From a virus (taxonomy: Duplodnaviria > Caudoviricetes): a stretch of 64,000 bases of DNA. Both the position numbers and the translations under genes were made by a program. Positions 45,531 through 56,962 of the stretch are shown piece after piece; position 1 is the stretch's first letter, and every line of letters starts with the position of its first letter. The notes below the pieces were generated by a model. The model saw only the letters and a program-made list of their open reading frames with translations, was not told the DNA's origin and made no database searches. The stretch covers positions 227,103-291,102 of IMG/VR virus record IMGVR_UViG_3300018430_000021; one strand, given 5' to 3'.

Positions 45531-45657
45531 AATAAACAGCGAGCAGTAACTTGTGGAAATAAGAGTTGGACTCGAACCAACGATCTTTGCATTGCTGCAA
45601 CGCTCTAACCAACTGAGCTATCTCATTGATTATAGGAACCGCTTGTGCTGTTCTATT
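45531..45657 (-). ncRNA. anticodon-less tRNA-like RNA closed by the GCA-N6-GUUCCUAU module
   Basis: D- and T-arms intact; anticodon arm is TTGCA-GCAA-TGCAA; outer stem carries the module. Confidence 0.7.
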
Positions 45658-49765: not shown

Positions 49766-49829
49766 TGTTATTTTTCCTTTTTCTTTAAATATAAAAAAAG
49801 GATTGACTTTCGTCAACCCTTTAATATAG

Positions 49830-49904
49830 TGGAGGCGATTGGAATTGAACCAATCAAGAGAGGAACATTCTGTGCAAAAGTTGCGGAAAGTAACCTTTGC
49901 CCCC
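49830..49904 (-). ncRNA. mini tRNA-like RNA: Ala acceptor, T-arm and GCA-N6-GUUCCU module
   Basis: GGGGGCA/CGCCTCC-A (G3:U70); no D-arm or anticodon arm. Confidence 0.65.
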
Positions 49905-49909
49905 ATTAG

Positions 49910-49983
49910 TGGATCCAGTGGTATTCGAAACCACAACCTCCCGCTTGCAGGGCGGGTGCTCTGCCAAATTGAGCTATGAACCC
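49910..49983 (-). tRNA. tRNA-Ala(TGC), C33
   Basis: Loop CCTGCAA, G3:U70. Confidence 0.9.
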
Positions 49984-49990
49984 ATGTTAG

Positions 49991-50063
49991 TAGCGGCGTC
50001 GGGAATCGAACCCGAATGCCAGGATTGAAGGTCCCGTGAACTAAGCCGTTATTCTACGTCGCC
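49991..50063 (-). tRNA. tRNA-Glu(TTC), C33
   Basis: Loop CCTTCAA. Confidence 0.85.
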
Positions 50064-50073
50064 ATAATTTTAG

Positions 50074-50146
50074 TAGTCCTATACAGATTCGAACTGTAGT
50101 AACTTGGCTGAGAACCAAGTGGCCTTGACCGCTAGCCGATAGAACC
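50074..50146 (-). tRNA. tRNA-Glu(CTC)
   Basis: Loop TTCTCAG. Confidence 0.9.
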
Positions 50147-50153
50147 ATATTAG

Positions 50154-50228
50154 TGCCACCGACAGGGGTCGAACCTGTGACGCGAAGATCTTCGGTCTTC
50201 CGCTCTACCAAAACTGAGCTACAGTGGC
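50154..50228 (-). tRNA. tRNA-Phe(GAA), C33
   Basis: Loop CCGAAGA. Confidence 0.85.
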
Positions 50229-50240
50229 ATATATTTTTTA

Positions 50241-50315
50241 TGGACCGTAGGAGGCTCGAACTCCTGACCCCCAGAATGCAAATCTGGTGCTCTACCAAAA
50301 CTGAGCTAACAGCCC
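50241..50315 (-). tRNA. tRNA-Ala(TGC)
   Basis: Loop TTTGCAT, G3:U70. Confidence 0.9.
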
Positions 50316-50320
50316 GAAAA

Positions 50321-50448
50321 TAAAACTGACCTTACTCATCTCAACGCGTACTATTGACTTTCGGTAAGCGCATACGGGATTCGAACCCGTGACCAGCGGC
50401 CTTCACACCGCCTGTTCTACCGCCGAACAAAATGCGTTATCAGTTTTA
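50321..50448 (-). ncRNA. tRNA-like core (about 50366-50438, irregular anticodon loop) inside a longer closing stem
   Basis: D- and T-arms present; loop region TGTGAAGG; flanked by TAAAACTGA/TCAGTTTTA. Confidence 0.55.
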
Positions 50449-50449
50449 G

Positions 50450-50523
50450 TGGACACATATGGGATTCGAACCCATGACGTTTTCCCTGCCAGGGAAACAT
50501 TCTACCAACTGAATTAATGGCCC
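50450..50523 (-). tRNA. tRNA-Ala(GGC)
   Basis: Loop CTGGCAG; acceptor with a 1-nt bulge. Confidence 0.85.
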
Positions 50524-50534
50524 ATGATTTTTAG

Positions 50535-50608
50535 TAGCGCTGTCGGGACTCGAACCCGAATTTCCGACTTGAAAGGCCGGTGAACTGAACCAGTTATTCG
50601 ACAGCGCC
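50535..50608 (-). tRNA. tRNA-Glu(TTC)
   Basis: Loop CTTTCAA. Confidence 0.9.
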
Positions 50609-50617
50609 GAAATTTAG

Positions 50618-50691
50618 TGGACACATATGGGATTCGAACCCATGACGTTCTGCGTGCAAAGCAGACATTCTACCAACTGAATTAATGGCCC
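50618..50691 (-). tRNA. tRNA-Ala(TGC)
   Basis: Loop TTTGCAC; body identical to 50450..50523 apart from the anticodon arm. Confidence 0.85.
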
Positions 50692-50700
50692 AAATGTTAG

Positions 50701-50773
50701 TACTCCGTCCCGGATTCGAACCGGGGTTATCCGATAGAAAGTCGGATGGCTTAAACCGCTGGCCGAACGGAGC
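50701..50773 (-). tRNA. tRNA-Glu(TTC)
   Basis: Loop CTTTCTA. Confidence 0.9.
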
Positions 50774-50784
50774 ATATTTTGTAG

Positions 50785-50857
50785 TGCCAAGTTCCGGAGT
50801 CGAACCGGATTTCTGGGATTTTCAGTCCCGTCCATTCCCACGATTGGATGCCATGGC
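50785..50857 (-). tRNA. tRNA-Phe(GAA), divergent
   Basis: Loop CTGAAAA; imperfect acceptor and D arms. Confidence 0.65.
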
Positions 50858-50858
50858 A

Positions 50859-50893
50859 TAAAAGAAAAGTTCCTGTGCTTGTGCACAGGAACC
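50859..50893 (-). terminator. attenuator terminator of the Ala/Glu/Phe tRNA operon
   Basis: GTTCCTGTGC-ACAA-GCACAGGAAC followed by TTTTCTTTT. Confidence 0.85.
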
Positions 50894-50917
50894 GTTTTTA
50901 AAACTCTAATCGGTTAA

Positions 50918-51031
50918 CTACCTGATCCTATGCACTGTATTTGAATCAAATGCTTCAAACGCTGCAGCTGCAAATTCAGCTGCGGCACGTTCTGCTGCAA
51001 AAAATTCATGTTCAAATACGTTCATAGTCAT
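50918..51031 (-). CDS. leader peptide MTMNVFEHEFFAAERAAAEFAAAAFEAFDSNTVHRIR
   Basis: RBS AAAGGT; 10 Ala, 6 Phe and 5 Glu out of 37 residues. Confidence 0.88.
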   Translation of the reverse strand: MTMNVFEHEFFAAERAAAEFAAAAFEAFDSNTVHRIR

Positions 51032-51215
51032 TTTGTTACCTTTTGTTATTATATATAAAAATTTTTTTCCTGTTTTTGCAAAAGTTTGATTCGGCCAATG
51101 GACTCCATCCAAAGTTTTACGTCAGCTCTGCACCGAATCATCTGATGCATCAGTTATGTGTTAAATATAGTAAAAAGTTGTTGGTTTGTAAACCCCTTTT
51201 TAAAATATTTTTTCG

Positions 51216-51327
51216 TGGGGAAGGCAGGATTCGAACCTACGACACACGCCTTGGAATGGAAATAGGAACGTTATATGCATTTCTACGAAACGTAAATACC
51301 GTTGCTCTACCACTGAGCTACTTCCCC
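51216..51327 (-). ncRNA. tRNA scaffold with the module inserted in the anticodon arm
   Basis: Canonical acceptor, D- and T-arms; about 40 extra nt containing GCATATAACGTTCCTAT. Confidence 0.7.
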
Positions 51328-51332
51328 GAGTG

Positions 51333-51644
51333 GTTAACGCGAAATGTATGAACTCATCTAAAAAATAATGCTTTTGATAGGAACATTCTTTGCGTTAACG
51401 ATGTTAAATATAGTAAAAAGTTGTTGGTTTGTCAACCCCTTTTTTAAAATATTTTTAGCCGGCGAGACTGGATTCGAACCAATAACCCAAAGTACCCTTT
51501 AGATAGGAAGCATTGGTGCTGAAAGCGAATACTAAATCTTAAACTTTTGCTCTACCGATTGAGCTACTCGCCGAGATGTTAACGCGAAATGTATAAACTG
51601 ATCGAAAATAATGTTTTTTTGATAGGAACATTCTTTGCGTTAAC
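51333..51644 (-). repeat. two copies (51333-51399, 51578-51644) of a ~67-nt hairpin RNA carrying the module, each after its own promoter
   Basis: GTTAACGC...GCGTTAAC ends; GCAAAGAATGTTCCTAT in both. Confidence 0.8.
51459..51573 (-). ncRNA. tRNA-Pro-like scaffold with the module inserted in the anticodon loop
   Basis: CGGCGAG/CTCGCCG acceptor; AAAGT/ACTTT stem around an insert with GCACCAATGCTTCCTAT. Confidence 0.7.
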
Positions 51645-51684
51645 AGGGTTAAATATAGCAAATTGCTTTGTGTTTGTCAACCGC

Positions 51685-53022
51685 TTATTGTAACTTTTTT
51701 TCCTCCTTCAAGTTTTTTCTGGAACGTTCTTTTTGTTCTTCAAGTAACTTGTTGAAACCGTCAAGGTCAACGGTAAGGTTATGCTGTTCACAAAGCATTT
51801 GTGTCAAGTCGACAGGAAAACCATAAGTATCATAAAGCTTGAAAGAATCAAAACCAGACAATACATTTCCATCCATCTTGGAAACAATATTGTTAAACTG
51901 CTTGATTCCGCTATCAAGGTTCTTCAAGAATCTTGATTCTTCATTCTTGATAACTTCAGTTACGAATTCTTGTCTTTCCTTAATTTCCGGATATACGTCA
52001 CCCATTACGTCGATAACAACCGGAACGAGCTTATACATAAACGGTTCATTGATATTTAACATCTTGCAGAACAAAGAACCTCTGCGAAGAAGCCTTCTCA
52101 ATACATATCCGCTTCCCTTATTAGAAGGCTGAAGTCCGTCAGTAATAGAAAATACAAGAGAACGAATATGGTCACTGATAACCCTGTGAGGCGTGCCGGA
52201 TTCATCATTCTTATATTCTACACCGCTAAGTTCAACAATCTTATCAATAAGTGGTTTAAACAAGTCGGTTTCATAATTACCGTTTGTATTCTGAAGAATA
52301 GAACAAATACGTTCAAATCCCATACCGGTGTCGATATTCTTCGTAGTCAACGGAATAAGCGTTCCATCAGAAAGTCTTTCTTTCTCCATGAATACAATAT
52401 TCCAGATTTCTACGTAACGGTCATTTTCACCGTTTACACCAAGGATAGGATCCTTGAATGTTTCTTCTTGAGTATTCAAATCGCCACGGTCATAATGAAT
52501 TTCAGAACAGGGACCGCATGGACCAGTATCACCCATTTCCCAGAAGTTATCTTTTTCTCCGAATCTCATAATACGGTCATCAGGTAGATTGGAAACTTCC
52601 TTCCAGATTTTCCAACTTTCATCATCGGTCTTATAAACAGAAACAAACAATCTTTCCTTAGGTAACTTCCATACTTTCGTTAAAAGCTCCCAAGACCAAG
52701 AAATAGATTCCTTTTTATAATAGTCATTGAAAGACCAGTTTCCAAGCATTTCAAAGAACGTATGATGATAGTTATCACGACCGACAACATCGAGGTCATT
52801 ATGCTTTCCAGATACACGTAAGCATTTCTGGCTGTTACATACACGTTTTAATCCTTGCGGGTTTTGACCAAAAAAGATTGGTTTAAACTGGTTCATTCCG
52901 GAATTCGTGAATAACAACGTCGGATCGTTATTGGGAATAACGGAAGAAGACTTGATAAACTGATGATTTTTTGACATAAAGAAATCAATAAAACTTTTTC
53001 TAATTTCGCTCGAGGTAAGCAT
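51685..53022 (-). CDS. alaS: alanyl-tRNA synthetase, aminoacylation and tRNA-recognition domains only; contains no Ala
   Basis: DPTLLFTNSGMNQFK, HHTFFEMLGNWSF, GPCGPCSEI, IDTGMGFER, GYVLRRLLRR, FKLYDTYGFP; ends before the editing domain. Confidence 0.95.
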   Translation of the reverse strand: MLTSSEIRKSFIDFFMSKNHQFIKSSSVIPNNDPTLLFTNSGMNQFKPIFFGQNPQGLKRVCNSQKCLRVSGKHNDLDVVGRDNYHHTFFEMLGNWSFNDYYKKESISWSWELLTKVWKLPKERLFVSVYKTDDESWKIWKEVSNLPDDRIMRFGEKDNFWEMGDTGPCGPCSEIHYDRGDLNTQEETFKDPILGVNGENDRYVEIWNIVFMEKERLSDGTLIPLTTKNIDTGMGFERICSILQNTNGNYETDLFKPLIDKIVELSGVEYKNDESGTPHRVISDHIRSLVFSITDGLQPSNKGSGYVLRRLLRRGSLFCKMLNINEPFMYKLVPVVIDVMGDVYPEIKERQEFVTEVIKNEESRFLKNLDSGIKQFNNIVSKMDGNVLSGFDSFKLYDTYGFPVDLTQMLCEQHNLTVDLDGFNKLLEEQKERSRKNLKEEKKLQ

Positions 53023-53035
53023 TTTTATTCTCCTA

Positions 53036-53070
53036 TAAAAATTAAAAGGTTCCTGTTGTGCACAGGAACC
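53036..53070 (-). terminator. terminator in the alaS leader
   Basis: GGTTCCTGT-GCACA-ACAGGAACC followed by TTTTAATTTTT, just before the alaS RBS. Confidence 0.8.
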
Positions 53071-53105
53071 AAAGTTTAGTTAATGAATATACCCATACAC
53101 ATATA

Positions 53106-53165
53106 TTATGTCATAATATATGCGGCTGCTGCGAAAATGCGAGTATTTAATATATTCATCGTCAT
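53106..53165 (-). CDS. alaS leader peptide MTMNILNTRIFAAAAYIMT
   Basis: GCA GCA GCC GCA run; MTMN start shared with the Ala/Glu/Phe leader. Confidence 0.8.
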   Translation of the reverse strand: MTMNILNTRIFAAAAYIMT

Positions 53166-53628
53166 GTCTTAAATATATATAATTTTTCTATTTTTGTAAA
53201 TGCTTTTTATTCAGGATGTTTGATGTCTTCTATTTCTCGTACCATGTCTCTTTCCGGGCTTTCTGAATTTTCATCCAAATAACGACCAGTAAGAATCATA
53301 GTATCATGGTCGGTAAATTCAAGATTCGGTTTACCTTCGGCCATATTCTCATAGTCCTCAGTAACAAGGTCTCTCCAAGAAGTATAACCGATTTGGTCCC
53401 AATTCCTATCGAAGAATTGGACTGCATTAGTTCCAACTTCCTTGGCGACAACTGCACCGAACATTCCATCCTTTCGCATTATAGATAAACCAGAAATGAA
53501 TTTACCCTTTTTGGTGGCACAAGAATGCATAATCTTCAACGGCTTATTCTCAAAAACAATTCTAAGCATACCGAAAATATCAAGTGCCTTTACCGGATGT
53601 TCAACAGTTTTAATTTCTGGAAGTTCCA

Positions 53629-54162
53629 TTAGTATTCAAGCTCCTCTTTATATCCGGCTAAAAGTTTTGCACGGACTTCATCAAGAACCTTACCAAGGCG
53701 GTTTTCGCCTTTCCAGTTTGCCTCGTCATTAATCAACGGGTCAAATTCACCGAGACCGACACCCCAGATTTTGTCAACCGGACTAGCTTCGACGAATTTC
53801 TTACCTTCAAGGGCAGGATCCGTAATCTTGTCGAACAGAATCTTATTCTGACTATACTTACTCAAACATGCGTTGAGCATGATATTGTAAGAAATCTTAT
53901 TCCATTCGTCCTGATTAAAACCTTCGACCATACGGCCAAGCTTCTTGGCCTTATAGGAATCAGCTTCCTTGAAATTAAGAGCTTCAATTTCATTCAGCGT
54001 AGCCATATCGTTAAAACAATATGCCTTATGCCACATATAGCATTGTTCAGAACTGAAAAATTCATGAATCTGCCCGTCAAGACACTTGGTCTTCATCGGT
54101 GCCCAAGCGAAATTTGACGGCCAGTCGCCCCAAAATAAAATGTGCTTATCTGTAATTGTCAT
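53629..54162 (-). CDS. NADAR (YbiA-like) family protein
   Basis: SNF, SSEQCYMWHKA..F.D, KKLGR.V, EASP.DKIWG.G, GENRLG..L..VR. Confidence 0.9.
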   Translation of the reverse strand: MTITDKHILFWGDWPSNFAWAPMKTKCLDGQIHEFFSSEQCYMWHKAYCFNDMATLNEIEALNFKEADSYKAKKLGRMVEGFNQDEWNKISYNIMLNACLSKYSQNKILFDKITDPALEGKKFVEASPVDKIWGVGLGEFDPLINDEANWKGENRLGKVLDEVRAKLLAGYKEELEY

Positions 54163-56962
54163 ATTAAATAAACCAAATAATTGAAGATTTACCGGATTCT
54201 TTAAGTTCAATTTTGTCGTAAACTTTACGTATTCTTGTAATCTGCCAAAGGAATGCATCACATGTTTTGGCGTAATCATTTTCGTCAATTACATTAGTAA
54301 ATGGAATAGGCGTTTCCTCAGACAGCTTTACATCTGTAAATTTAGTTTCATCAAGCTTATAGTACCAGGCTGGCATTTTCTTCAGAAACTTATTAAATGT
54401 AAATTCAGAATCCTTATTATAAAGTTTACTATGCAAATACAAATGCAATTCGACCAAATCTTCAATAGAAAGAATGAAACCGGTATTATACTGTTTTTCG
54501 TTTGAAGCTTTTTCGATTATCTTGCATCCACGTTTCTTAAGGAACTTAACAGCTTCCTTTCTTAACATAATGCGGGTAAGCTTTACAATATAATGCTCGT
54601 TGGCCTTGTTTCCAATGACAGGAGAATCTTCCTTGAATAAAGCCATATCGTTGAGCTTTTCAAGTGAATTACAATATACTGTCATCGAAAGCTCGTCGTT
54701 ATACAACTTATCAATCAATGCAAGATAACGTTTAAGCTTTTTGTTTTCGACAATACTATAGAAATCACTACAGTAAATGCCAGAACCTTCTTCACGAACA
54801 TTATACATTCTTTGATAGACATAAAACGCCAAAGATTCACGTTGACATTCATAGGTGCTTACTATTCTTGATAGTTCATATTTTGACATTTGTCATCACC
54901 CTTTAAGACAATTTAATTCGAGAATATCTTTTAATGCAAATAAATGATTATTGAAAGTATCAATATTTTTTATTTTTAAAAGTTCTCGTATAGTTTTTTC
55001 GTTGCGTTTCATATTAATAACAGCGTACCAAATTGGTTCCTGTGTATCAGCAGTCTTAAGAACCCAAGTACGGGAATTTGGTACTTCTGTTACCGAAGGA
55101 TAGTGTAAATCTGGAGTATTATATGACAATGGATATAAAACATACTTTCCACCGTTTTCTACACGGCAGATAAGCTTATATGACAATTTACTCCAAATGT
55201 TCCAGGCCATTACTTAACTTCTGACTTTAAGAGTTCATCATAGCGCTCACGAATATCGGCGCTGAGTTCCTTGCGTCCTTCGACAGCAGAAGAATGAGAA
55301 GCCCAGAACGAAATGAGGATAAGCAGGGTAACGAACGGACCCATGCAGATACCCATAGCGGCGAGCAAAACATTAATAGCATTATCGAGCTTGACACGCT
55401 TAAAGATTACACATGCGTTAAAGATACCGCACAGAATCCAAAGAATTGTACTGATTTCCATATTAGTTTTCCTTTTCTGTATTGTTTAACTGTTCAGTTT
55501 CTTGAGTATCAACATATTGACACGTAATTCGATTAATCTTGACCTTAGACATAAAATATTCAGCCATGTCAAGAGTAAATTCTTCATAAACTTTCGGATT
55601 GTTATGACAGATAGATTCAAACAGTTCCTTATAGAGCTTCTGAATATCCTTTTCATAAACATATTCTACATTTGTAAGATACTTGATTGTCAGACCAACA
55701 GCGTCCTGCAATCTCATATCCGGAAAAGCATCATTAATGGATGAATAAATCTTAAACAACTTCTGGTGAACGTTGTCCAGTTCCTTATAGACCTTTTTGA
55801 GGTAATGCTTGAGAGTAAACTTATAATTTACTGGAATGCTCATTTTCTTTGTAAATACATAGCATTCATAAGTAAGTTCATAATAATTAATACTGAACTT
55901 TGCAACTAGCTGTTGGTCTACATAGCAATTAATGTACTGATATGGTGAATTGACACGTTCCTCAAAGGTAACGCGATCCTTACCGAAAACATCAGTACAA
56001 ATCTTTTTAAAGTATGTTGCATTAATTACGAACATTTTATCCCCTAGTCGTCAGCATCAAGCCAGCCTTTATGTTTCGCCACATCGTATGTAGCAGTAAT
56101 AATGGATTCAATAGTTTCATCATACTTGTCCTGAAGTAAAAACTTGATATGACTCAAAAACATCTTTTTCGCCTTATCGTCATTGTTCTTTGACTGTCTC
56201 AAGTTTTCTTCGAGAACTTCTTTAAAATATTGATACATCAATTACCACCTGATAATAAAATCGTCTGCAGGTTGCTTAAGATATTCATCTTTCTTAAATA
56301 GCTCATGACAAGCACCGCCGAGTTCTTCACCCAGCCACGATAACGCATTACAAAGATTTCGCCTTTCAACATCATTAAATTCAAGAGGCTCGCCAAGCTT
56401 AAGCTTCAAGTAAAGCTTATTCATATTCTTGCGATGCCAGCTTTCTTGTAAACTGTTCCATGCTTCGTCTGTCATAATACTACCTTAAACATAATATAGC
56501 AAACTATACTAAGTTCGTCAACCCTCTAATATGTCCAACGTCTGTTCAATCTTTTTATTCTGCTGTTCGATATAATACTTCTTAAGAAGCGCCATCATCT
56601 TTTCATATTCTGCGGTAAACATTTCCGGCCAGTTTTTAACATTGGTAGAAACATAAGTACATTCTTTCGATATGTTAGATAATATAAGTTTGTTTCTCAT
56701 ATCCAATCCGCCGATATGTGTAAACTTATATCCATGACGCGGAATATAACGAATCATTATATTCATGCCAGGAAGTCTAGTATTACGAAAGAATAACCCG
56801 CAAAAAATAGGATGTTCGATTACCCCGCTTACAACCGGACCGCCATAAATCTGGTCATTATAAAATCCATCTGTCTGATGCGGTATTCCACGTAAATCGA
56901 AAAAATCTTCAGCCATTTTCAGCTCAGAATTAAACGCATCTAACGCAGCCATACTATCGATT

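Follow-up and report, generated by a model that had tools for sequence, protein, structure and literature searches.

The gene alaS of a Caudoviricetes phage encodes an alanyl-tRNA synthetase (AlaRS) that contains no alanine. The gene lies in the window analyzed here, a stretch of 64,000 nucleotides that forms the terminal 64 kb of the linear 291,102-bp IMG/VR virus record IMGVR_UViG_3300018430_000021. Judged from sequence, alaS was probably purged of Ala so that the enzyme can be made when Ala-tRNAAla is scarce, as part of a leader-gated module that restarts alanine charging. The purge was first proposed in an earlier reading of the same DNA (the original prediction). It gains support from a leader upstream of the gene, the loss of Ala in one codon phase and its maintenance by selection in 15 variants, the Ala content of homologues, and a second huge phage, LR745206.1, whose synthetases show a similar pattern.

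51685-53022 (minus strand): alaS, an open reading frame (ORF) of 445 amino acids plus a stop codon, from ORF translation

Loss of alanine from the phage synthetase

Over the 445 amino acids of the protein there are 0 Ala, as the original prediction had reported, and 0 in-frame GCN codons. The expected numbers are 24.3 GCN codons from the phage's other ORFs and 26.2 Ala from homologue columns. When depletion was tested for 278 non-overlapping ORFs and 20 residues across the whole record, the absence of Ala from alaS ranked first of 5,560 ORF-by-residue tests (P=1.4e-11, against the phage's own proteins). alaS is also the sole ORF of the record in which a common residue is wholly missing. In the remaining ORFs, Ala makes up 4.7% of residues within the window and 5.5% across the record, which bears out the earlier remark that neighboring proteins use Ala normally. 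The next most residue-depleted ORFs were considered as further synthetases and rejected, as they carry no synthetase domain and encode cadherin-like, chaperonin, and other proteins.

The missing residues include some of the most conserved in the family. The original prediction depended on close cellular homologues not being equally Ala-free, and the 119 top-ranking homologues that do not belong to the phage's cluster contain 2.4-11.5% Ala. All 18 alignment columns in which Ala is the majority residue are substituted in the phage protein, by Ser in ten cases, Val and Asn in two each, and Thr, Leu, Gly, and Cys in one each. Position 41, where the phage has FTNSGM for FTNAGM, is Ala in 118/118 homologues. 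Ala is likewise found at position 106 in 118/119, at position 110 in 108/119, and at position 283 in 109/119 homologues. Among the Ala-to-Ser exchanges named earlier, FTNSGM and the replacement of near-invariant Ala stand, whereas that in DSFKLYDT does not have the same weight; its Ser aligns to Ala of the enterobacterial enzyme, but Ala is not the majority residue there among homologues.

The Ala-free state is also maintained in nature. The phage protein belongs to a 90%-identity cluster of 54 members, from which 15 protein variants were read, and all 15 have 0 Ala across the 445-aa core. Nine distinct coding sequences differ by a synonymous divergence (dS) of 0.26-0.92, with a ratio of nonsynonymous to synonymous divergence (dN/dS) of 0.03-0.10. 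Such low ratios at dS up to 0.92 indicate strong purifying selection and an old Ala-free state. Ala accounts for 0/75 variant residue states, for which a BLOSUM62-based expectation is 4.5-6.8 (P 0.001-0.009). Two variants have lost the stop codon, with extensions of 48 aa (4 Ala) in P0130 and 14 aa (0 Ala) in P0128.

Chance, mutational bias, or avoidance of a GC-containing DNA motif could be invoked for such a frame, and the AT-rich genome (~38% GC) does lower GCN codon use generally. However, the P value given above was obtained against the phage's own proteins. GC dinucleotides, absent from codon phase 1-2 of alaS (0 against 24.3 expected), are normal in phase 2-3 (11 against 12.8) and phase 3-1 (14 against 12.7), which points to selection on codons and not on DNA. 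Invariant alanines have been replaced, and the Ala-free state has been kept across dS of ~0.8. An origin by chance or bias is therefore extremely improbable.

The ORF product is an AlaRS by every sequence test. It matches PF01411 at 1e-183 and scores 584.6 bits with TIGR00344, the alaS equivalog, whose cut-off is 457.05. Solved catalytic fragments of A. aeolicus and E. coli AlaRS match the phage protein end to end (E 1e-142 to 1e-144, ~50% identity), and this degree of identity settles its fold. The TIGR00344 match spans model positions 1-432 of 847. The protein therefore consists of the aminoacylation and tRNA-recognition domains only, with no editing or C-Ala domain, and the earlier claim that editing is absent holds. 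Compared with the canonical four-domain AlaRS, which includes a tRNA_SAD editing domain and a C-Ala domain, the phage enzyme is a 'mini' form. A stand-alone editing domain of the AlaX type (PF07973) had no match anywhere in the 291-kb record.

These absences suggest another cause for the loss of Ala. An editing-less enzyme may mischarge tRNAAla with Ser or Gly, and an Ala-free gene would escape its own mistranslation, so that an error-amplifying loop is avoided. Besides the lack of editing in the protein and in the record, the invariant Ala beside the amino-acid pocket has become Ser. However, the same purge is seen in the Asp, Asn, Arg, His, and Met synthetases of LR745206.1, which do not have a comparable mischarging problem. 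Protection from its own errors also leaves the Ala-codon leader and terminator upstream of alaS unexplained, and the errors would still hit all other phage proteins. We regard this explanation as very unlikely.

In an alignment to enterobacterial AlaRS, phage residues R69, W161, N208, V210, D231, and G233 align with E. coli R69, W170, N212, V214, D235, and G237. We take the latter to be the alanine and ATP pocket residues of the class II core (Guo et al. 2009). PSNKG of the phage protein is aligned to PSNEN of the enterobacterial enzyme, LYDTYGFPVDLT is shared by both, and the conserved Asn and Asp are kept. These two residues read G3:U70 of tRNAAla (PMC10036535). The phage protein is thus predicted to be a working mini-AlaRS.

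The protein could instead have a non-charging role as a decoy, sponge, or regulator that binds tRNAAla or alanine, with the absence of Ala caused otherwise. The loss of C-Ala, the main tRNA-binding module of bacterial AlaRS (PMC10036535), would be in keeping with such a role. On the other hand, all checked catalytic and G3:U70-recognition residues are retained, the alaS equivalog cut-off is exceeded, dN/dS is 0.03-0.10, and a viral mini-AlaRS of like architecture is active in vivo (PMC10036535). A role other than charging is therefore very unlikely.

Nine other synthetase families were searched in the 291-kb record with no match, leaving alaS as the sole synthetase found.

The leader upstream of alaS and its proposed function

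The 184 bases 5' of alaS hold, in order, a promoter, a leader ORF, a terminator, the AGGAG sequence, and the start codon. The elements on the minus strand are as follows.

53172-53200 (minus strand): promoter-like TTTACA-17-TATATT, 10/12 matches in a consensus scan; conserved in the five variants aligned that far upstream
53106-53165 (minus strand): leader ORF MTMNILNTRIFAAAAYIMT, 19 codons plus a stop codon, read from the sequence
53121-53132 (minus strand): proposed sensor, the four Ala codons GCA GCA GCC GCA, from the sequence and its variants
53059-53100 (minus strand): proposed antiterminator, UGUGUAUGGG pairing with CCUGUGCACA (part of the terminator 5' arm plus loop), from a co-transcriptional fold
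53038-53070 (minus strand): intrinsic terminator with a 9-bp GC-rich stem, a 5-nt loop, and a T-tract, from a terminator scan; hairpin of -14.3 kcal/mol
53030-53034 (minus strand): Shine-Dalgarno sequence AGGAG of alaS, read from the sequence; invariant in variants

This layout is preserved in seven sequence variants. The ATG of the leader lies 6 nt past the -10 hexamer, and the leader mRNA is therefore probably leaderless. In the run of Ala codons, 6/7 variants show only synonymous changes (GCA/GCC), while codons before the run change the residue. Selection thus seems to act on the codons of the leader and not on its peptide. Each of the two off-state helices and the terminator has one compensatory pair (U-A to C-G in the terminator), with 97.4% of cells paired.

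A co-transcriptional model gives different structures for different ribosome placements. When a ribosome occupies the Ala codons before the terminator's 3' arm has been transcribed, the antiterminator folds at -12.5 kcal/mol. With the ribosome at the stop codon, the antiterminator pairing is gone (-2.4) and the terminator (-14.3) forms. When the ribosome is absent, the antiterminator strand is held by the 1:2 hairpin and a long-range helix. A permissive Rfam scan of positions 49800-53300 found no T-box or other known regulatory RNA ahead of alaS, which is the only protein-coding gene found behind such a sensor in the record. We read the upstream region as a probable leader-peptide attenuator that would turn alaS on when Ala-tRNAAla is scarce.

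In the proposed mechanism, ribosomes stalled on the four Ala codons of the leader would hold the 1:2 hairpin open. The antiterminator would then form, and RNA polymerase would continue into alaS. When Ala-tRNAAla is plentiful, the ribosome would reach the stop codon, the terminator would form, and alaS would be turned off. Because alaS would be induced when Ala codons are read slowly, it must itself be free of Ala codons. Selection would have stripped all of them from the alaS frame, mostly by Ala-to-Ser exchange, and would thereby have removed the catch-22. Since the production of an Ala-free enzyme is independent of its own product, only the negative feedback via the leader would remain. A tRNA-Ala/Glu/Phe array behind a second matching leader, described below, would provide substrate tRNA simultaneously. 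Four parts of this scheme are what we infer: the direction of regulation, the translation of the leader, the activity of the enzyme, and the cause of the shortage.

Several observations weigh against the scheme. The leader has no Shine-Dalgarno sequence, and for it to be translated a leaderless start has to be supposed. In one variant, the Ala run of the leader reads AASA. Equilibrium folds of the whole leader retain the terminator at every ribosome placement; the antiterminator is seen only in the co-transcriptional model, and its pairing, 98.6% in seven variants, shows no covariation. Variant P0130 lacks the stop codon and reads on into 4 Ala of the downstream spacer. The E. coli N461 fragment binds tRNAAla weakly (PMC10036535), and an AlaRS lacking the tRNA-binding domain could be a weak enzyme. 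Neighboring phage genes contain 3-6% Ala, so a total lack of Ala-tRNA is not the usual state. The Ala use of the phage (5.5%) is not high and gives no reason for alanine in particular running short. Finally, the record is estimated to be ~70% complete, and more synthetases may be present in the phage.

A shortage of Ala-tRNAAla could arise from demand, starvation, host defense, or shutoff of the host by the phage. The same bootstrap logic may thus operate with a trigger other than a block of alanylation by defense or phage, namely starvation of the host for free alanine or the demand of the phage burst. Codon-matched leaders precede phage tRNA sets for many other amino acids, which suggests a general supply on demand. 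However, an extra AlaRS would be of little help if free alanine were missing. Moreover, alaS is the sole synthetase found in the record, and this points to something particular about alanine charging. Such a trigger is possible but somewhat doubtful.

Other phages, downstream tRNA genes, and the likely host

LR745206.1 is a GenBank phage of 634,780 bp that is unrelated to the phage of the window. It was found through a weak match, an AlaRS-like ORF with 0 Ala and with Ser at the invariant Ala of motif 1. The genome was searched for other synthetase families, and the matches were named with NCBIfam. The ArgRS-like gene was missed by PF00750 and found by a weak PF00579 match and TIGR00456. In 13/14 synthetase-like genes, none of the 20 residues is depleted more strongly than the cognate one, whose count is exactly zero in nine; the exception is a 285-aa GluRS/GluQRS-like paralogue. 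The counts of the cognate residue per protein length in LR745206.1 are listed below.

IleRS: 0 Ile/735
ValRS: 0 Val/443
AspRS: 0 Asp/433 (62 Glu)
AsnRS: 0 Asn/392
ArgRS-like: 0 Arg/392
MetRS: 0 Met in a 474-codon open frame
PheS-related ligase: 0 Phe/359
HisRS-like: 0 His/211
AlaRS-like: 0 Ala/248
GlyRS-like: 1 Gly/246
GlnRS: 1 Gln/532
GluRS: 6 Glu/492
LeuRS-like: 18 Leu/422

ORFs with cognate runs (IIII, VVV, LLL, FFF, DD, and NN) lie upstream of synthetase-like genes in LR745206.1. Among AspRS relatives in other huge-phage contigs of IMG/VR (L089-L094), two at 78% identity have 0 Asp, and those at 39-69% identity have 9-22 Asp. No relatives of the LR745206.1 IleRS were found in the viral contigs searched. 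The Ala-free AlaRS of the window is thus one clear case of a wider design.

Some details of these genes can be added. The MetRS open frame of LR745206.1 has no ATG anywhere. The Phe-free protein named 'PheS-related mystery ligase SrmL' may act on Phe. The Ala-free AlaRS-like frame of this phage (L067:3975-4105) has no ATG, GTG, or TTG in its first 44 codons, motif 1 included. In LR745206.1, MKRLDAF, a 7-codon ORF with one GCA, overlaps the AlaRS-like frame in another frame and is followed by a hairpin. Entry into this AlaRS-like frame could occur by frameshift or from an AUU start.

A viral AlaRS with ordinary composition also exists. A search of viral contigs with the single phage protein gave no match. 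With an alignment as the query, 30 loci were found, nearly all of which are full-length host alaS genes at prophage borders with 7-10% Ala. One locus, L053:3001-4362 in a 171-kb IMG/VR contig, encodes a true viral mini-AlaRS of 456 aa with no editing domain and 12 Ala. Its Ala content matches that of its neighbors in a genome of 27% GC, and no Ala leader lies upstream. As a counter-example it fits the model, having ordinary Ala content where there is no Ala leader. Two cellular AlaRS from long contigs, P0083 and P0069 (446 and 449 aa), were considered as natural mini forms and rejected, as both are bacterial genes whose editing domain has been split off into a separate ORF immediately downstream.

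More tentatively, huge phages may carry self-starting translation repair kits, in which cognate-free synthetases gated by stall sensors would restart codon families knocked out by host defense or by phage shutoff. Such a defense might consist of a nuclease that cuts tRNA or of a toxin that targets either a synthetase or the tRNA 3' end. If this idea is true, an undescribed attack directed at alanine tRNA would exist in rumen Fibrobacterota.

The host assignment behind this suggestion comes from two observations. The cellular proteins nearest to the phage AlaRS, at 57-61% identity, are from Fibrobacterota, and the samples that contain the phage have names resembling those of ruminant gut metagenomes. 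A Fibrobacter-like host is therefore likely, and the mini-AlaRS gene was probably acquired from a Fibrobacterota host.

Downstream of alaS follow two promoters, each with an insert-bearing tRNA, then a third promoter, a second leader, a terminator, and a tRNA array. The last three elements are as follows.

50918-51031 (minus strand): second leader ORF, 37 codons with 11 Ala, 6 Glu, and 6 Phe, read from the sequence
50868-50893 (minus strand): terminator of the second leader, near-identical in sequence to the alaS terminator, from a terminator scan
49909-50773 (minus strand): tRNA array Glu, Ala, Glu, Ala, odd, Ala, Phe, Glu, Glu, Ala, from ARAGORN and Rfam

The second leader and the alaS leader share an MTMN start. 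The second leader peptide is identical in relatives L013-L015, and two residues differ in L016. The array, one part of the 33 tRNA genes within the window alone, contains four tRNA-Ala, four tRNA-Glu, one tRNA-Phe, and one odd tRNA. Its tRNA-Ala are likely substrates of the phage AlaRS. G3:U70 and A73 are present in the tRNA-Ala at 49909 and 50241. Those at 50451-50523 and 50619-50691 (both minus strand) share an irregular acceptor stem, in which ARAGORN leaves pairs 3 and 4 mismatched; if a single U of the 3' strand is bulged out, both recover G3:U70 and A73. The second leader and terminator (50868-51031) ahead of the Glu/Ala/Phe array resemble a leader attenuator that gates tRNA genes.

The two tRNA-like genes between alaS and the second leader, at 51459-51573 and 51216-51327 (minus strand), each have a TTGACA/TATATT promoter of their own and are interrupted within or close to the anticodon arm by an insert of ~40 nt. 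As tRNA they score 52-53 bits in Rfam, and neither has G3:U70. ARAGORN finds them in intron mode only, with inserts of 24 and 33 nt (Cys aca and Val tac). For the odd tRNA of the array (50366-50438, minus strand), which is present in relatives L013-L015, ARAGORN finds only a two-base anticodon. Folding by hand gives an anticodon loop of 8 nt and an acceptor end of the glycine type (G1-C72, C2-G71, G3-C70, U73). Another similar odd tRNA lies at 45554-45627. In the L018-L020 sublineage, a different tRNA block directly follows alaS, and the Ala/Glu/Phe leader and array are absent at that spot. In L018 this block begins with the odd 'ca' tRNA, after which come Asp, Lys, Gly, and His; in L020 it is a longer mixed set. 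On the other side of alaS, two genes upstream, lies a gene for a NADAR-domain protein (5e-34; 53629-54288, minus strand), and the pairing is kept in L013-L015, L017, L027, and L028.

Significance and relation to known systems

Selection appears able to break a translational dependency loop by wholly removing a common amino acid from a conserved enzyme, even at positions that do not vary in cellular life. The case indicates that shortage of a particular charged tRNA is a real and recurring condition in phage-infected cells. It also offers a sequence-only way to spot emergency phage synthetases. Since the missing residue names the substrate, a specificity can be guessed, as with the Phe-free ligase of LR745206.1. 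Synthetic biology could also draw on such genes as natural models for synthetases built without their own amino acid, to be used in cell-free translation systems and in systems with reduced amino-acid alphabets. Our literature search found no paper on synthetases without their own amino acid or on leader-gated synthetase or tRNA genes of phages.

The pheM-pheST operon of E. coli and the trp, his, leu, and thr leaders share two elements, a short ORF containing cognate codons in tandem and, after it, an intrinsic terminator. Like alaS, pheST is a synthetase locus behind such a leader and terminator. In contrast to pheM-pheST, the phage leader probably lies on a leaderless mRNA, the gene is one of a phage and encodes a product from which the sensed residue is missing, and modules of this type appear to gate tRNA genes as well. 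In the co-transcriptional model, the phage leader would switch among three states in the manner of the trp attenuator.

According to the parts of Al-Shayeb et al. 2020 (PMC7162821) consulted, huge phages can encode as many as 15 synthetases together with numerous tRNAs, which are relatives of the host's own but distinct from them; these parts make no mention of the composition or leader control of the synthetases. The mini-AlaRS of Tupanvirus is active and specific for G3:U70 without an editing or C-Ala domain (Antika et al. 2023, PMC10036535), and its domain structure matches that of the phage AlaRS. However, Tupanvirus is a eukaryotic virus, and its enzyme does not have the conserved Asn and Asp that read G3:U70, whereas the phage enzyme keeps both. 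Its amino-acid composition is not mentioned in that study. Domain boundaries are also shared with the E. coli fragments 461N and 1-441 (PDB 3hxu) and the A. aeolicus fragment 1riq. Unlike the phage protein, these are laboratory truncations, with normal Ala content in the aligned sequences.

Biosynthetic enzymes use little of their own amino acid, as in tryptophan synthase, whose alpha subunit is Trp-free (Alves and Savageau 2005; PMC4209129). By this measure of low cognate bias, alaS has 0% Ala compared with 5.5% in the ORFs of the phage. The catch-22 logic is the same, applying to a protein that restores the supply of an amino acid. Here, however, the enzyme is a phage-encoded tRNA synthetase, and the limiting species would be charged tRNA instead of the free amino acid. 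The bias is also total and concerns a common residue (26 expected, 0 found), with invariant positions included.

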